Positions 1-6,648 of a stretch of 39,465 bases of DNA are shown here, piece by piece. A model generated the notes under the pieces. The model searched no databases. It worked only from the letters and a program-made list of their open reading frames with translations, and had not been told where the DNA came from. Location: the IMG/VR virus record IMGVR_UViG_2526164598_000015; one strand, written 5' to 3'. The DNA is from a virus (Duplodnaviria > Heunggongvirae > Uroviricota > Caudoviricetes). Position 1 is the first letter of the stretch; every line of letters starts with the position of its first letter. The position numbers and the translations under genes are program-made.

Positions 1-1119
1 TCAAATAACCAACTTAACCCATTCCTGACCTCGAGTATCGTTATAGCGATCGGTGGTTGCCTGGACTTTATGTCCTAGTAATGTTTTTGTATCGATACCC
101 TGTGCACGGTACAACCGTTCTGATAGAGAGCGTTGTTCATGAAATGTTGGCGGAGTTTTTCCTGCTGGTGGAATTATCCCAGCCAGATCCCGTGCTTTGG
201 CAAAGTAGTCGCTCAGGTTGTCTTTACTCATCGGCTTCGGTTGTTTCTGGTGCCGACTATGGATTAGATATGGACTTAATATTCTGTCTCGGCACCCATC
301 AATAACTTCTTTTAACGTTATCCCAATGGCATCACAGCGTAGTGTAAGCGGTAACGCCAGACGCATTCCGGTTTTTCCCTGGGTGATATGCAAGTGTTCG
401 TTCCACACATCTGAAAAACGCATGTGGCAAATGTCATCACGGCGCTGACCAGTAACAATCGCAAGAAGCATTGCGTTACGGATAAAGTGTTTTTCAGGCG
501 TTGCATTGTAAATTTTTTGCCAGTCTTCCATGGTGAGCCTGGCTCTGGTTACTTTAGGGATCGGTTTACGGGTAGCCTCCGGAGGATTCCATCCAGGAGG
601 AACTTCCCCTGCATGCTGTGCTTCTTTATAAATATCAACCCATAATCCACGATTTACTCTCGCTGTGCTGACCATGTCTTTATCCAGCCACTCATCCAGT
701 ATTAATGCAAAGTCTCTTACTTCCAGTTCTTTCAATGGGTGGTTTCCCAGACGGGAAACCAGGTATGCAGCCATTCGAGTTTTTTCTTTGTGAGTTGTAG
801 CTGCAATATCTCCATTTTTCAGTCGCGCGTCCTGTATTTTCAGATATCGATCAACCCATGCCTTTAATCTGATGCCCCGACGTTTTGTTGCTGACGGACT
901 TTCATCAATTTTGCGCATGAAATATTCAGCTTCTGCTGCAGCTATTCGCTGATTGGCTGTGGAAGCGATTTTTTCTGCTTTGCCTTTGTCTGTTCCGAGA
1001 CCGTGAAATTTTCCAGTCACAGGGTTTTTATACTGGTAGTAAACCCTGCCAGTTCTGCGATCAAACTTTTCGTAAAGACCGGTTACGTCAGTGCTGTTTT
1101 TTCGTGGCCTCGGTGACAT
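1..1119 (-). CDS. int: Phage integrase, tyrosine recombinase family
   Basis: 372-aa ORF; C-terminal catalytic-type region (..HSRH.., ..LLGHKVQATTDRY..); AGGAG RBS upstream of ATG at 1119; overlaps xis 3' end as in lambdoid int-xis pairs. Confidence 0.9.
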   Translation of the reverse strand: MSPRPRKNSTDVTGLYEKFDRRTGRVYYQYKNPVTGKFHGLGTDKGKAEKIASTANQRIAAAEAEYFMRKIDESPSATKRRGIRLKAWVDRYLKIQDARLKNGDIAATTHKEKTRMAAYLVSRLGNHPLKELEVRDFALILDEWLDKDMVSTARVNRGLWVDIYKEAQHAGEVPPGWNPPEATRKPIPKVTRARLTMEDWQKIYNATPEKHFIRNAMLLAIVTGQRRDDICHMRFSDVWNEHLHITQGKTGMRLALPLTLRCDAIGITLKEVIDGCRDRILSPYLIHSRHQKQPKPMSKDNLSDYFAKARDLAGIIPPAGKTPPTFHEQRSLSERLYRAQGIDTKTLLGHKVQATTDRYNDTRGQEWVKLVI

Positions 1120-1418: not shown

Positions 1419-3890
1419 TTAAAAATCAGCCTGACTCGGGATCAGTTTTTGCCAGATAGCTGAAACGTATTTTGCCTGGTAACGAGCGTCATCAAGTGCA
1501 TTATGGCGCTCACCTTCGAATGGGATAGCAGTTCTGGCATCGAAGTCTATGGCTTTCCCCAGCTCAACGATTGTGCGTACATCGCGATCGTTGTAGTAAC
1601 GCCACGGGTAGGGGATCCCCTGCCGCTCGTATGAACGGCGCAAAATCGTGTTGTCGAAGTTGGCTCCATTTCCCCAGACCTGAACAAAAAATTCACCGGA
1701 GTTTTCGTCGATAAATTCCCGCAATTGTAACAGTGCATCATCTAACGGGATTTCATCGGTCATAATGGCAGATTGCGCCTCGCGTGATTGCTTAAGCCAC
1801 CATTTAATGGTGTCACGATCAATGACTCCGCCAGCAGTTTCCAGATCGATAGTCTTACTAAATTCCGGTCCCATATCTCCGGTTTGCGGATCGAAAAATA
1901 TTGCACCTATTGAGATAATCGGGGCATCAGGATTTTTTCCCATGGTTTCAAGGTCGATCATTAGATGGTCACACGTCCTGCTGGTGGATGTGATAACGCG
2001 ATGACCGTTCACCGTAATTAAGGGATCTGCCGTCTCGCCAGTTTCACTATCGCTGGCGTGATCCTGAGCGCTGCCAGCATTCTCCTTGTGTGGGTGTTCA
2101 GCGCCTTCCATTTTCTCCGAATCGTCTTCCTGAACTTCAACCTGGTTCTTGTCATCGAATGTTTCCTGGTATGTTGCGTCGCCCATCACCGCACCACAAT
2201 CAGGGCAGTTGCCACCACCGCTCTGACCGCAGGCGGTGCAGATTTTTTCCGGTTCCTGTTGCACTACTGGTTCAGGTTGTTTCGTTTCTGGCTCGTTTTG
2301 TTGCGTATTTGGGCTGTTTTGTTCCGCTTTCTGGTCGTTCTGTTCCGTTTCTTGCTGGTTCTGGTTCACAGTATCGCGGGTCTGGATCCCCTTAACCCAT
2401 TTCGGATCATTCGGGTCGCTAATCCCTTCAATAAATTCACCACGTGATGCAGCAAGCAACTTATCGGCGTCAGGCTGGCTGATATTGGCTGCCTGCATAA
2501 TTTTGTTTACTTCGTCAGCGGTAACTTTTACCGGTTCTGGCTGTGCGGTCGTGTCAGATGCACCAGTATTTTGTTGTGAACCTGAGTATGTACTGTTTTT
2601 GCGGGCGAAATATTCTTCTTTCGTGATTTCAGTAGCCCCGGCAGCCAGCGCCTTATCCAGACCAGAAAGTTTGTTTGCGCGACCGTATTTTTCGCCATCC
2701 TTGTCGGTGAAGAGGAAGTAGAACGGCCCCTCACGCTCTACAGATGGTTCGACTTCCACTTTGCATTCGGTTTTTTCGTTGTCCGGAATTGCCGTTTCCA
2801 CTGCATCAGTTTCTGGTACTGGCGACGAGAGAGTATCAGTTGCGCTCTGATTTGTTCCTTCATCTTCAAACACGCCCTTTGTAGTCAGGTATTCAGTAAT
2901 GTATTTGTTCAGTGCCACAGGGTCTTTGTGAATGTCGATCGGACGTTCACGGACAAGGCCAAAAATAGTCTGGCGGTCGTAGCGAAGGGCATCAGGCTGT
3001 TTGCGCATTGATGCCGAGATACGCTTCCAGTCTTCGCGGTCGTTGTCGATAACTTCATTTTTTGCCCAGCGATGAATGCTGCCGTCAATGTTTCCGGCAT
3101 CCACATCACCAGGCCAGAGAGCGTAGGCCAGTTCGTCATCCAGTGTTTTCCATGTCTGCTTGTATTCGCGATGAGTGGCAGCAATGACCGGGCTGATTTT
3201 TCCTGTTGAACTTTCAGTGTTCTGTTGATTGGCTCTGGCGCGGGCGAGATCAACAACAGACGTGTATTTTCCGGTTCCCTTGCGTTCACCTTCGCGACGT
3301 TTTTTCCAGATGCGCATCTCTGCCTGAATTTCGGGCCATTTAGCTCCAGGCTTACATTTATGCTTAACCCACCCGATGGCATGCAACTTAAGTTCCGGAT
3401 ACATGGCGTTAACTTCTGGCATTTTCATCAACGCTTCAACGATATGTCCGTCGAATGTTGCCATGTCTTCCTGCAACAGTTCCTGTGCACTAATCACCAT
3501 ATCAACGGTGATGTTTTCACATGTGTCGAACTTAACCATGACAGCGTTCTGTACTTCAGGGGCCAGCTTGTCAAAAGTGACGTTCATCGGATTTGATTCA
3601 GTCTCAACCGGGACAAAGGAAGCTGACTCCTCATCCCAGCGGTTTTCCCGCATATATTCAGCATCCCAGGAATCGAGGGCAGGGCGGGGTATACCGGGTT
3701 TATCCTCGCAGACAAGAAATTTATAAGCGCAGTCCTGAGCAGCCGGATATTGCTCCAGGAATTGCCAGGTAAATTTGGCACGGGCGCGGCGTTCGTCACC
3801 GGCTTCAATGGCAGTGGCTACAGCAACTGCACCTTCTTCCTTTATTGCCTGTTCGTCCGGAATGGCGGCGCAAATAAAGACTTTACTCAT
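1419..3890 (-). CDS. Large exonuclease: RecE-like (exodeoxyribonuclease VIII family) N-terminal/central region with Cys4 motif, fused to C-terminal DEDDh (DnaQ-like) 3'-5' exonuclease domain
   Basis: 823 aa; C-terminus has Exo I motif (MIDLETMG) and Exo III motif (HNALDDARYQAKY); central segment (LLAASRGEFIEGISDPNDPKWVKGIQTRD...CTACGQSGGGNCPDCGAVMGDATYQETFD) matches RecE as I recall it; Q/E/N/P-rich low-complexity linker. Confidence 0.75.
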   Translation of the reverse strand: MSKVFICAAIPDEQAIKEEGAVAVATAIEAGDERRARAKFTWQFLEQYPAAQDCAYKFLVCEDKPGIPRPALDSWDAEYMRENRWDEESASFVPVETESNPMNVTFDKLAPEVQNAVMVKFDTCENITVDMVISAQELLQEDMATFDGHIVEALMKMPEVNAMYPELKLHAIGWVKHKCKPGAKWPEIQAEMRIWKKRREGERKGTGKYTSVVDLARARANQQNTESSTGKISPVIAATHREYKQTWKTLDDELAYALWPGDVDAGNIDGSIHRWAKNEVIDNDREDWKRISASMRKQPDALRYDRQTIFGLVRERPIDIHKDPVALNKYITEYLTTKGVFEDEGTNQSATDTLSSPVPETDAVETAIPDNEKTECKVEVEPSVEREGPFYFLFTDKDGEKYGRANKLSGLDKALAAGATEITKEEYFARKNSTYSGSQQNTGASDTTAQPEPVKVTADEVNKIMQAANISQPDADKLLAASRGEFIEGISDPNDPKWVKGIQTRDTVNQNQQETEQNDQKAEQNSPNTQQNEPETKQPEPVVQQEPEKICTACGQSGGGNCPDCGAVMGDATYQETFDDKNQVEVQEDDSEKMEGAEHPHKENAGSAQDHASDSETGETADPLITVNGHRVITSTSRTCDHLMIDLETMGKNPDAPIISIGAIFFDPQTGDMGPEFSKTIDLETAGGVIDRDTIKWWLKQSREAQSAIMTDEIPLDDALLQLREFIDENSGEFFVQVWGNGANFDNTILRRSYERQGIPYPWRYYNDRDVRTIVELGKAIDFDARTAIPFEGERHNALDDARYQAKYVSAIWQKLIPSQADF

Positions 3891-4013: not shown

Positions 4014-4247
4014 TCACCATGACTCTGCTTTTACAGGTAAACCATCACGACCAAGGAAGACTTTAATCATGGTTTCCTTAATACAGTGTTGTGTGGAAAA
4101 ATCACGAATATAGAGCCGTTGTTTTTTAATGTTGTTTACCGAAGCAATATATGTTCTTCCTTTATGAATAACATAATCACCGGGAGTCACGCACTGACGA
4201 GGAATCTCATCAGTTCCGAAGTGATGAGCAATCATAATTATCTCCAT
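4014..4247 (-). CDS. Hypothetical small protein (77 aa)
   Basis: ORF only; weak RBS; no recognisable motif. Confidence 0.35.
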
Positions 4248-4801
4248 TTTTACAAATGAACTTTGTTGATGCGGTGCCTGGTGCCTCCAGGTGACGTTAA
4301 CCAGTTAACAATTAACGCCGGATACAGAGAACCCACCCATAACACTGTTTTTGGTTTTAACTGTTCCGCGTGCGCTCAGCCGCATTCACCGCATCACAAA
4401 ACTCACTTTAAAAAGGGCGGCAGACCAGTCACGGAGTAAAACTGATACCGCCAAACGTCACCAGAAAATTGATAACAGAGGGCGTTGCAGCGGGGTTGTC
4501 ACTTAAGCGTATGGTCAACCTGACAACCCGGTGTCCTCAACGGGGAAGGAATAACCCCGCCATACTTACCGCCGCGCCATTTCGCGGAGTGCCACAACCG
4601 GAAGCGCACGGTCGACGAAAATTTAACGACAGGCTATCTATGAACCAGCTACCTCGCCGTGCGCTTTCGCGTTATGGTCTGACTTTTCAGGGAAATATCC
4701 TTTCAGTAAACTGTCAGTGCCGGATGCTCACCCGTGTCCGGCGCACGCACTCCACCTCACCCGTGGAGAACTCCTTAATCACCAACCCTCAGGAGGGTGA
4801 A

Positions 4802-5077
4802 ATGTCGACTGAAAATGATGAAATCATTAACTCCCTGATACGCCAGATTAATAATTTTGATAAAGCATTGCAGCATGCTGCGGCGCGTAGTGATATAACT
4901 CTTTTAGCAATTTCATTTCTTGCATCTGTAATGGATAAAAATGAAGTCGTACGACAGAGTCTTGTTGATTATATCGACTCGCTTCAACCAGGCACTTTCA
5001 ATCATGAGAGCTTCAATCATGAGAAAGAGCATGTTAAATCTGTAATTAATTCTCTTGTTTTGAATCAAAAGAATTAA
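4802..5077 (+). CDS. Hypothetical protein (91 aa), AT-rich, predicted helical
   Basis: ATG at 4802 preceded by AGGAGGG RBS; upstream in-frame extension of track ORF 4469..5077 judged non-coding; 3' end overlaps convergent gene by 32 bp. Confidence 0.5.
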   Translation: MSTENDEIINSLIRQINNFDKALQHAAARSDITLLAISFLASVMDKNEVVRQSLVDYIDSLQPGTFNHESFNHEKEHVKSVINSLVLNQKN

Positions 5078-5375
5078 TGCTTTTTGTTGCAAGGTAATTT
5101 TCAAGGGGTTCTATTCGAATCCCTTTCTTTTTCATTAACAAGCCAAACCCCTTATCAATGATGTCCATTAGATCCAGGAAGTATTTTTCATGTAAATCCA
5201 GGTTATCAGAGAGCTGCTTCTCTTCGTACAGACCGATAAAGGCACGACGCACGTTACCGGATATAGTATCGATGGTTTCTTTTTCTACGGTACTCAGGTC
5301 AAGAGTCGCCAGTTGGGAACGAACTATATTCGCTGCCATTTCCTGGAATTGCATTGGTAAATCTTTAAATTCCAT
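5046..5375 (-). CDS. Hypothetical protein (109 aa)
   Basis: ATG at 5375 with ACGAGG RBS; 22 bp downstream of the 72-aa gene, same strand (operon-like). Confidence 0.55.
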   Translation of the reverse strand: MEFKDLPMQFQEMAANIVRSQLATLDLSTVEKETIDTISGNVRRAFIGLYEEKQLSDNLDLHEKYFLDLMDIIDKGFGLLMKKKGIRIEPLENYLATKSINSFDSKQEN

Positions 5376-5397
5376 TATTAGCCTCGTTGGTTAGCTA

Positions 5398-5616
5398 TTA
5401 ACGCGGGCATGTAATCATTCTGGCAATGCTTAATGCCGCTGCTTTTTCCAGCCTGGTGATATCCTGCTCCAGAGCGGACAGATTTTCAGCCTGCTTAGCC
5501 TTGGCTTCATTGGCCCATTTCAGATCCTGCGCTGCATTAATTTTCTGGCGCATCCACTCATAAAGTTCATCATCGGTATAGTCTGGCGCGATGATGACGG
5601 GTTCTCGTTTCTGCAT
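5398..5616 (-). CDS. Hypothetical protein (72 aa), coiled-coil-like; first gene of early-left operon
   Basis: ORF downstream of the putative oL/pL region; no arginine-rich N-like motif. Confidence 0.5.
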   Translation of the reverse strand: MQKREPVIIAPDYTDDELYEWMRQKINAAQDLKWANEAKAKQAENLSALEQDITRLEKAAALSIARMITCPR

Positions 5617-5918
5617 ACTGATTCCTCGCGGTGCTGTTTCCCCTTAACGCCGGGGTAGCGGAACAAAAACCTGCTGCATAGTTATTAAAGTTGAACCCTG
5701 CCGTCATGTTCTTACGCCTCGGGCTGGCTACTTAACCCCTGACCACTGCCGGGTAACTCGAAGTATTGCCCTGCATTCTGTGGGGTGGAGTGAGGGAATG
5801 AATGAAGTTTAGAAAAATAAACTTTACAGGTCAATGTTTTTTTATCAAAACATTTTAAGCAGGCAGCTGTTAAGCCATCACCACGATGGCATACAGTTAA
5901 TCAAATAGATGAGGTTGG
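5617..5918 (-). promoter_or_regulatory. Candidate oL/pL region (leftward early promoter and operators) downstream of cI
   Basis: 300-bp AT-rich non-coding gap; contains ATCAAAAC and ATCAAATA motifs, the reverse complement of the GTTTTGAT repeats in the cI-cro intergenic region. Confidence 0.3.
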
Positions 5919-6557
5919 TTAAATATCTTGTTGAATTTTAAAGCATACGCCCAATATGCAAGATAGATCATCCAGCATAATTGAAGGGTAGCGAGGATTC
6001 GTGGGGACTAAAAGAATATCCGGCCCTTCTATCTCCAGTTTACGAATGACAGGTGTTGTGGTCCCTTTGGGTAAGGCAAGGACAATATTTCCTGGTTGTA
6101 CGGTTCGATCGGGATCAACAAAAACTGTTGAACCATTTGGGATGGAAACTCCCCCACCAGATGTTGACATACTGTCACTCTCTAGAACAACTGCAAAGGT
6201 ATTGGCCGGGATTTCTCCGACAAGCTGCACACAAGAGGTTATTGAGGAATTTTTCATATAATCACTCCAGCTTGCTGCCTGCTGAAGTGATAGTAGCGGA
6301 ACCGTTTTTATCGGCGGTAAAGATAGATCAAGCGAATCACCTGTATTTAACTCTCCTCCATTAAGAAGCCAATTTTCGTTTACTTTCAATATCTTTGCCA
6401 GTGAACTTATGTAACGCGAGGACGGCGCTCCTCCACCGTTCATCCATTGACTTACGGAGCCTTTTGATGCGCCAGTGGCATTGACAAGGTCTTTGCCTTT
6501 CAGGTTTAGCGCATGCATACGTTGGGTTATGCGTTCAGATATTGTTTGCTTGCTCAT
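5919..6557 (-). CDS. cI: CI-like prophage repressor (N-terminal HTH, C-terminal S24 LexA-like peptidase domain)
   Basis: 212 aa; N-terminal HTH-type region (..GASKGSVSQWMNGG..); C-terminal Ser/Lys dyad context (..VVLESDSMS.. and ..PVIRKLE..); divergent from cro-like gene. Confidence 0.85.
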   Translation of the reverse strand: MSKQTISERITQRMHALNLKGKDLVNATGASKGSVSQWMNGGGAPSSRYISSLAKILKVNENWLLNGGELNTGDSLDLSLPPIKTVPLLSLQQAASWSDYMKNSSITSCVQLVGEIPANTFAVVLESDSMSTSGGGVSIPNGSTVFVDPDRTVQPGNIVLALPKGTTTPVIRKLEIEGPDILLVPTNPRYPSIMLDDLSCILGVCFKIQQDI

Positions 6558-6648
6558 GTTTTGATTTTAAAACACAGATGGTTTTGTTTCTTGACTTTCT
6601 TTGGTTTTGATTATTAAACTTTTGGCGTTCAGTTTTATGGAGCGACTC
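6558..6648. promoter_or_regulatory. Divergent operator/promoter region (oR with pRM/pR-like promoters)
   Basis: Three GTTTTG(A/T)T repeats at 6558, 6581, 6604 (23-bp periodicity, like tripartite lambdoid operators); TTGACT -35-like hexamer at 6591-6596; GGAG RBS before cro ATG. Confidence 0.5.

Follow-up and report, generated by a model that had tools for sequence, protein, structure and literature searches.

The 39,465-nucleotide sequence of the IMG/VR virus record IMGVR_UViG_2526164598_000015 (Caudoviricetes), hereafter the window, raises the question of what a small gene is doing when it runs against the early-left operon of a lambdoid prophage and overlaps the end of one of its genes. Between positions 4802 and 5616, the initial annotation had described two minus-strand genes of 72 and 109 amino acids (aa) separated by 22 bp, and a plus-strand gene of 91 aa that converges on the second of them with a 32-bp 3′ overlap (5046-5077), and all of these coordinates check out. 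The region belongs to an early-left operon of the dicBF type (Qin-like) in a lambdoid Escherichia coli prophage and makes up its promoter-proximal part; the order is cI, left operator and leftward promoter (OL/pL), ydfC (the 72-aa gene), the 109-aa gene, about 580 nucleotides (nt) of untranslated RNA that include a structured spacer, the DicF small RNA (sRNA) and Kil.

Here, we find that the 109/91 cassette is one allele of a polymorphic module at the dicF-precursor junction, and that the 91-aa gene is one of many interchangeable small prophage genes at this spot. With about even credence for and against, we read the 91-aa gene as a self-contained prophage accessory gene (moron) in a sieB-like slot, whose expression would alternate with that of pL and whose product would take part in conflict.

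A polymorphic cassette at the dicF-precursor junction

Relative to phage Tritos, in which the dicF spacer directly follows ydfC, the 109/91 pair is an inserted low-GC cassette. The extra DNA of the window covers ~4788-5375 (~590 nt), with the Shine-Dalgarno (SD) sequence of the plus-strand gene (CTCAGGAGGGTGAAATG) at one end and the region where the 109-aa gene starts at the other, and on both sides of it the two phages are 95-98% identical. The cassette has a GC content of 38.7% against 54.8% in the adjacent spacer, which is the untranslated, structured and conserved 5′ precursor of dicF (4467-4787, minus strand; folding z-score -2.8) and keeps 97-100% identity whether or not a locus carries the cassette. 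A short imperfect inverted repeat flanks the cassette (4777-4787 and 5382-5395; ACCAACC ... GTTGGTTAG), and in the cassette-less Tritos the two halves of this repeat pair into a hairpin of 6 bp that directly follows the stop codon of ydfC.

To see how general this arrangement is, we compared 80 loci encoding the N-terminal 55 residues of the 109-aa protein (the MEFKDLP family, see below) and 120 independent IMG/VR dicF loci. The junction is empty in about 45 of the 120 dicF loci, where ydfC lies ~312-342 nt from dicF, and across the same set at least 11 different small genes occupy it in antisense orientation to pL. Convergent pairs of sense and antisense genes were found for the 106/109-aa form with the 91-aa gene (33 genes), the 124-aa form 124B with a 73-aa gene (26) and the 133-aa form with a 92-aa gene (21), and further pairs are 121-66 (7 genes), 112-64 (5), 212-69 (3) and 135-77 aa (1). 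Seven C-terminal alleles of the sense gene each have one antisense partner (131 genes), and by the open reading frame (ORF) map a 129-aa form adjoins a 61-aa gene as an eighth pair, so that there are at least eight allele pairs with antisense partners of 61-92 aa. Another 124-aa sense gene (type A) occurs without a partner in 28 genes. Sense alleles with no more than 26-34% overall identity still share their N-domain at the protein level, while their C-termini are unrelated between alleles. On the other hand, identity over the aligned region amounts to 83-96% between the 106/109-aa and 124-aa forms, yet their partners (91 and 73 aa) are unrelated.

The antisense alleles of 91, 92, 73 and 77 aa have a common start, at one SD/ATG junction with the spacer. 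The 91-aa and 92-aa partners are probably distant homologues, as suggested by profile alignment over the full length (hhalign E=6e-4, 31% identity; phrog_18692 E=0.018), and this allelic partner is the sole relative of the 91-aa family detected outside the family itself. Homology of the 73-aa partner to these two was rejected, the sequences being unrelated, and the C-terminal halves of the 133-aa and 109-aa alleles were likewise rejected as homologues of each other.

Several antisense genes occupy the slot without a sense partner, encoding a 143-aa zinc-ribbon protein, a 94-aa GhoS-like protein and a 106-aa protein with multiple transmembrane (TM) segments; at loci L114, L181 and L095 there is no MEFKDLP gene and yet an antisense gene is present. 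The 94-aa protein (L181, 377-673) matches the Pfam family GhoS, a type V antitoxin endoribonuclease, at 21.2 bits against a cut-off of 21, and no GhoT-like toxin ORF was found near it. The 106-aa protein (L095, 330-650, and 12 similar loci) contains several hydrophobic segments (MSQPPINPLKNMKIDYWYKALTVVGAALFV...), matches nothing in Pfam or PHROGs, and is a candidate membrane exclusion factor.

Of 5426 complete E. coli genomes, 198 carry the 91-aa gene, 127 the 92-aa gene and 88 the 73-aa gene; strain CFSAN018748 (NZ_CP028192.1) has a 91-aa gene that is 100% identical. A scan of species-representative genomes added E. albertii only, and a profile search with the N-domain returned fragments from Escherichia and Shigella only; the family appears confined to these two genera, with occasional Salmonella records. 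Conservation in related prophages, on which the initial annotation had made its reading depend, is mixed: the pair is kept as a unit in hundreds of genomes, but most related dicF loci lack it or carry something else in its place.

Interchangeable small antisense genes, in many cases paired with a polymorphic early protein, thus have a hot spot at the junction just upstream of the dicF precursor, and they form a set of candidates for exclusion, immunity or counter-defence functions encoded by prophages. The operon type, DicF, Kil and YdfC were known already, and the cassette genes are widespread 'hypothetical proteins' without literature. No papers were found by protein accession, papers on dicBF do not mention the cassette, and a preprint on hyper-variability hotspots of phages has no mention of lambda, sieB, kil or dicB. 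We found no description of the hot spot or of the polymorphic MEFKDLP/antisense-partner module in the searchable literature.

Coding capacity and predicted products of the convergent genes

Judged by its sequence, the 91-aa ORF (4802-5077, plus strand) looks like a real coding gene. A strong SD sequence, AGGAGG (4791-4796), ends 5 nt 5′ of its ATG, and an intact ORF is found at the position of the antisense gene in all alleles. Between two subtypes that are 80% identical (41 nt differences), the annotated frame has the lowest ratio of nonsynonymous to synonymous substitution rates (dN/dS) of all six, at 0.31. Divergence is maximal within this gene, at 12-30% per 60 nt against 0-5% in the flanks. 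The gene also contains two copies of a 15-nt tandem repeat, TTCAATCATGAGAGC / TTCAATCATGAGAAA (4997-5026, plus strand), which encode FNHES and FNHEK, and the copy number varies from 1 to 3 in relatives, giving proteins of 86, 91 or 96 aa.

The 109-aa gene (5046-5375, minus strand; SD GAGG) encodes a conserved N-domain (residues 1-50) followed by an allele-specific C-terminus, and the 22-nt gap to the 72-aa gene is at 5376-5397. When the segment 4788-5397 was shuffled 5000 times, 62 of the shuffles had a plus-strand ORF of 91 aa or more, six had a minus-strand ORF of 109 aa or more, and none had both. Both genes are annotated by the NCBI Prokaryotic Genome Annotation Pipeline (PGAP) in RefSeq genomes. 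The AT-richness reported in the initial annotation was borne out, with 40.7% GC in the flagged region against 50.9% in the window, which places it in the lowest 5.6% of 815-bp windows; it is uneven, the low-GC source being the 91-aa gene (34.8%) and the 109-aa gene (38.2%), while the 72-aa gene has 48.9%.

A stop-free frame at 4469-4801 (plus strand) runs in frame into the ATG of the 91-aa gene, over the antisense strand of the DicF precursor. Because of this frame, gene callers extend the 91-aa protein to 117-159 aa (for example, P0002 with 145 aa), which is a recurring annotation artefact. The whole 202-codon frame (4469-5077) was rejected as the true gene, as its upstream ATG is not conserved (locus L007) and it is antisense to the conserved dicF precursor; that the downstream SD and ATG are all that three alleles have in common further disfavours it.

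By profile similarity, the 109-aa protein belongs to an uncharacterised family of MEFKDLP-domain early proteins. It matches phrog_6937 over its full length (E=1.4e-67), and its residues 1-55 also match phrog_1363, 2151, 9419 and 33007, all five phrogs being matched over these residues. The N-domain of ~50 aa has the invariant columns M1, E2, F3, K4, D5, L6, Q11, A14, L22, A45, F46 and L49, all of which are present in the 109-aa protein. AlphaFold predicted an all-helical structure with a helical-hairpin N-domain followed by further helices (predicted local distance difference test, pLDDT, 67) for this protein, and a soluble four-helix protein (pLDDT 70) for the 91-aa gene. Both proteins are acidic and hydrophilic (isoelectric points of 5.4 and 4.9; grand averages of hydropathy of -0.31 and -0.38).

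The initial annotation had recognised none of the three proteins and had suggested profile and structure searches. This judgement stands for the 109-aa and 91-aa proteins, which found no characterised relative, and falls for the 72-aa protein, which matched YdfC. Scans of Pfam, PHROGs, NCBIfam and PADLOC gave no characterised family for the 91-aa protein, the 109-aa protein or the products of six other alleles. Neither of the two proteins reached a Pfam or NCBIfam threshold, no toxin or antitoxin family was matched, and the 91-aa protein had no PHROG match. An exhaustive phmmer search with the 91-aa protein, covering 1.84 billion representatives, returned only its own family and one spurious repeat protein. 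Searches of PDB sequence profiles gave nothing below E=0.1, and Foldseek searches of the AlphaFold models against PDB and BFVD gave nothing below E=0.3.

A proposed accessory gene in a sieB-like slot

The initial annotation had placed the cluster in the zone where lambdoid phages carry kil and sieB. This agrees with the presence of a Kil homologue at 4014-4247 and of sieB in the equivalent antisense slot of Rac-like phages. In the Rac-like phage 666R9, sieB is placed in antisense orientation, with kil on one side and the small pL genes on the other, and its convergent overlap is 4 nt long. Lambda has an ORF at the sieB map position (34482-35036, plus strand) that runs antisense to pL and adjoins the 3′ end of N. 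The 91-aa gene has the same position and orientation: it runs opposite to pL between the immunity region and kil, and its 3′ end converges on a pL gene. SieB is expressed from the prophage and is a membrane protein of roughly 190-200 aa. Unlike SieB, the 91-aa protein has no membrane segment and no Pfam or PHROG match, and there is no similarity between the two in sequence or fold.

The gene also resembles morons, a concept that reportedly goes back to Juhala and Hendrix. Like them, it has a GC content unlike that of its surroundings (34.8% against 54.8% in the spacer), it is antisense to lytic genes and comes with predicted terminators, and it is present or absent among near-identical phages, being missing from Tritos and from about 45 of the 120 dicF loci and replaced elsewhere. 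Unlike typical morons, no promoter of its own was identified and it is tightly paired, with overlap, with a polymorphic sense gene. Accessory loci are characteristically antisense to lytic genes, and an antisense transcript of a prophage can exclude related phages (Owen et al., 2020, PMC7067206).

Two terminator-like elements follow the 91-aa gene on the plus strand, both of them consensus-level predictions. In the first (5045-5089), ATTAATTCT (5045-5053) pairs with AGAATTAAT (5070-5078), followed by GCTTTTTGTTG, and on folding with ViennaRNA the inverted repeat (5045-5078) covers both stop codons. The second (5103-5135) lies inside the 109-aa coding sequence and consists of a 9-bp stem followed by TCTTTTTCAT; its hairpin (5103-5125) is followed by TCTTTTTC, and it is also kept in the 124-aa/73-aa allele. 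No U-run was found 3′ of either hairpin on the minus strand. Since no minus-strand terminator was found between the 109-aa gene and dicF, pL can read through, and a terminator halting pL before dicF was rejected for the same lack.

Under our reading, cI bound at OL would shut pL in a lysogen, leaving the 91-aa gene as the only unit expressible here. Plus-strand transcription would end within the 3′ end of the 109-aa gene and would oppose leaky read-through from pL to the toxic DicF and Kil. Upon induction, strong transcription from pL would cross the entire 91-aa gene antisense and head-on, and the collision together with the complementary RNA duplex would silence that gene, so that the two units would be expressed alternately. 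The 91-aa product, predicted to be a soluble acidic helical bundle, would most likely bind and neutralise another protein in a phage-phage or phage-host conflict, in an exclusion or immunity type of function. The gene is probably expressed from the prophage, and the arrangement is a candidate switch based on transcription collision, by which lysogens could hold DicF and Kil silent. The mutual antisense interference proposed in the initial annotation is reasonable from this geometry, but no promoter was found for the plus-strand gene, so that simultaneous transcription is hypothetical.

Several observations weigh against this reading. No sigma-70 promoter match of at least 9/12 was found upstream of 4802, so independent expression in a lysogen is hypothetical; the candidate there is a weak 8/12 match, TTTTCA-17-TAAACT (~4684-4712, plus strand), within the conserved spacer. 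Other alleles (L114 and L149) carry a perfect TATAAT. The strict one-to-one linkage of alleles could mean that both proteins act together and not independently. The 91-aa protein contains no TM segment (maximal 19-residue Kyte-Doolittle hydropathy of 1.43), and a membrane or secreted role was rejected on this hydropathy. It is not similar to SieB or to any PADLOC defence protein, the PADLOC-DB 2.0 matches being at noise level only (BrxA, E=0.014, 12.8 bits; HerA, E=0.025). Given the lack of a TM segment and of these similarities, it is from position alone that an exclusion or defence role is argued. Finally, the confidence of the AlphaFold models is moderate (pLDDT 67-70) and the fold searches were empty.

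Alternative explanations for the paired alleles

The allele linkage leads to a different possibility, that the two genes form an effector-immunity (toxin-antitoxin-like) pair, in which the MEFKDLP protein would be an effector with an active variable C-terminus and the convergent gene would encode its cognate neutraliser, made constitutively by the lysogen against leaky pL expression or against the effector of superinfecting relatives. This would explain why each of the seven C-terminal alleles (131 genes; 129/61 as the eighth by the ORF map) has one antisense partner and why a protein-level N-domain is shared by alleles whose C-termini are unrelated. Both partners are predicted to be small, acidic and helical, a type that acts by binding, and a gene with an antitoxin fold (GhoS-like) is found in the same slot elsewhere. 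In pore-forming colicin operons the immunity gene is on the opposite strand, and colicin or polymorphic toxin-immunity cassettes similarly combine a conserved N-module and a variable C-terminus with a small, allele-specific, convergent gene on the opposite strand. However, the pairing may reflect mere physical linkage as the genes overlap, the 124-aa type A form is partnerless 28 times, the closely similar 106/109-aa and 124-aa forms (83-96% over the aligned region) have unrelated partners, and antisense genes occur in the slot without any MEFKDLP gene (L114, L181 and L095). Also unlike the colicin systems, no toxin or immunity domains were detected and no toxin or antitoxin family was matched, and the setting is a phage early operon, not an SOS-induced plasmid operon. 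On balance we consider such a pair rather unlikely.

Two conventional toxin-antitoxin classes were rejected. A type II system does not fit because no toxin or antitoxin domains reach threshold and the genes are convergent, not co-directional, and a type I system with a convergent antisense RNA does not fit because both products are hydrophilic and acidic and the antisense unit is protein-coding.

The reverse assignment of roles is also conceivable, with the antisense gene as a defence or abortive-infection factor of the lysogen and the MEFKDLP protein as the allele-matched inhibitor of the phage, which would let the phage replicate after induction or in lysogens with the same defence. The sieB/esc system of P22 follows a similar logic. 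The same allele pairing and the sieB-like slot are consistent with this arrangement, and partnerless MEFKDLP genes would make sense as counter-defence, but a 61-92-aa protein that is soluble and helical and lacks any enzymatic or membrane domain is not likely to serve as a defence effector on its own, and PADLOC gave no match. We therefore regard a defence gene with its self-antidote as improbable.

These two possibilities can be combined in a broader proposal, namely that the MEFKDLP gene and its convergent partner constitute an unrecognised polymorphic two-gene conflict module (effector/immunity or defence/self-antidote) with at least eight allele pairs, in which head-on transcription from pL and from the promoter of the partner would switch between a lysogenic state (partner on) and a lytic state (effector on) and would gate read-through to DicF and Kil. 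We put this forward as a tentative idea that is more likely wrong than right.

At the RNA level, the plus-strand transcript itself might act as an antisense RNA or roadblock that limits pL read-through to dicF and kil, or that excludes related phages. Such a transcript would be fully complementary to that of pL, the hairpin spans the overlap on both strands, and the transcript STnc6030 of Salmonella prophage BTP1 offers a precedent, being antisense to lytic genes, expressed from the prophage and able to exclude related phages (PMC7067206). But STnc6030 is non-coding and targets late genes, whereas the antisense unit here is a conserved ORF with a strong SD, kept intact from the same ATG in four alleles and with its lowest dN/dS (0.31) in the annotated frame; in addition, unrelated alleles would share no antisense target beyond their own cassette. 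A purely RNA-based function is hence very unlikely. Decaying, non-functional filler of a degraded prophage, which might be suspected from the many dicF loci without the cassette and from the deletion of ydfA and ydfB in the window, is extremely unlikely in view of ORFs that are intact in hundreds of genomes and improbably long by chance, the signature of purifying selection, and a window that also has a repressor, an exonuclease and further long ORFs in the right arm.

Operon context and neighbouring features

The cluster that the initial annotation left unrecognised turned out to be the start of a dicBF-type operon, whose DicF and Kil lie just outside the segment it had described. It is the DicF sRNA gene that identifies the operon type; this gene (4415-4466, minus strand) was found at full length by Rfam RF00039 with 74.2 bits against a gathering score of 48, at 336 nt from the start of the 91-aa gene. 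Beyond it is a gene for a Kil-like septation inhibitor of 77 aa (4014-4247, minus strand; phrog_294, 'Kil protein for bacterial septation inhibition', E=2.6e-34). Close relatives have a DicB (PF05358) and a DUF1482 (YdfD-like) gene at this position, and the gene in the window matches Kil, not DicB. An 823-aa 3′-5′ exonuclease (1419-3890, minus strand) lies beyond Kil.

On the promoter side, a cI-type repressor is encoded at 5919-6557 (minus strand; Pfam Peptidase_S24, 2e-13, and HTH_3; phrog_4). Between it and the 72-aa gene are a pL-like promoter and OL (5806-5852, minus strand), with the promoter-like hexamers TTGACC-17-TAAACT and TTGATA-16-TAAAGT (5806-5848). These overlap two operator palindromes of OL, GTTTAGAAAAATAAACTTT (5807-5825) and ATGTTTTTTTATCAAAACA (5834-5852), which recur at 6556-6574 and 6604-6622 in the cI/cro divergent region. 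Such recurring operators over the hexamers support the putative pL, downstream of which the initial annotation had placed the two minus-strand genes.

The 72-aa gene (5398-5616, minus strand; SD GAGGA) is ydfC according to its sequence, with a match to phrog_1744 (E=1.4e-38) and a 98%-identical syntenic relative named 'protein YdfC' by PGAP. It is the first early-left operon gene in the window because ydfA and ydfB are missing, about 300 nt being absent in comparison with locus L001. The deletion junction lies at ~5637-5640 of the window, where L001 (3886-4186) holds ydfA (DUF1391) and ydfB.

The reference for this type of locus is the dicBF operon of the Qin cryptic prophage of E. coli K-12 (ydfA-ydfB-ydfC-dicF-dicB-ydfD), with which the name of Faubladier (1990) is reportedly associated. 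Like that operon, the window has a leftward promoter under repressor control, ydfC, a long spacer that is structured and untranslated, and a full-length DicF, followed by a division inhibitor and a large exonuclease, and its spacer and dicF are 95-98% identical to those of canonical loci. In contrast to Qin, the window lacks ydfA and ydfB, has a Kil-like protein instead of DicB, and carries the ~590-nt low-GC cassette with its two convergent genes between ydfC and the dicF spacer. The canonical layout was described as ydfA-ydfB-ydfC, a long untranslated stretch that contains dicF, followed by dicB (Balasubramanian, 2016, PMC5069750). Loci of the dicBF type are present in most E. coli genomes (4741 of the 5426 match the flagged region) and encode toxic division inhibitors together with a regulatory sRNA.

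Some further features of the window were recorded. The dicF-kil intergenic leader contains a sub-threshold match to the STnc100 sRNA family (4262-4399, minus strand; 37.7 bits against a gathering score of 47, E=4e-6), and a 372-aa ORF (1-1119, minus strand) at the outer end of the early-left arm reaches the left edge of the window. In an AT-rich stretch at ~9500-12000 (33-38% GC), a Sok antitoxin RNA was found at 11806-11980 (plus strand; Rfam RF01794, 108 bits), which implies a hok/sok-type type I toxin-antitoxin locus. Three tRNA genes are clustered at 16223-16469 (plus strand), with Rfam scores of 56-72 bits.

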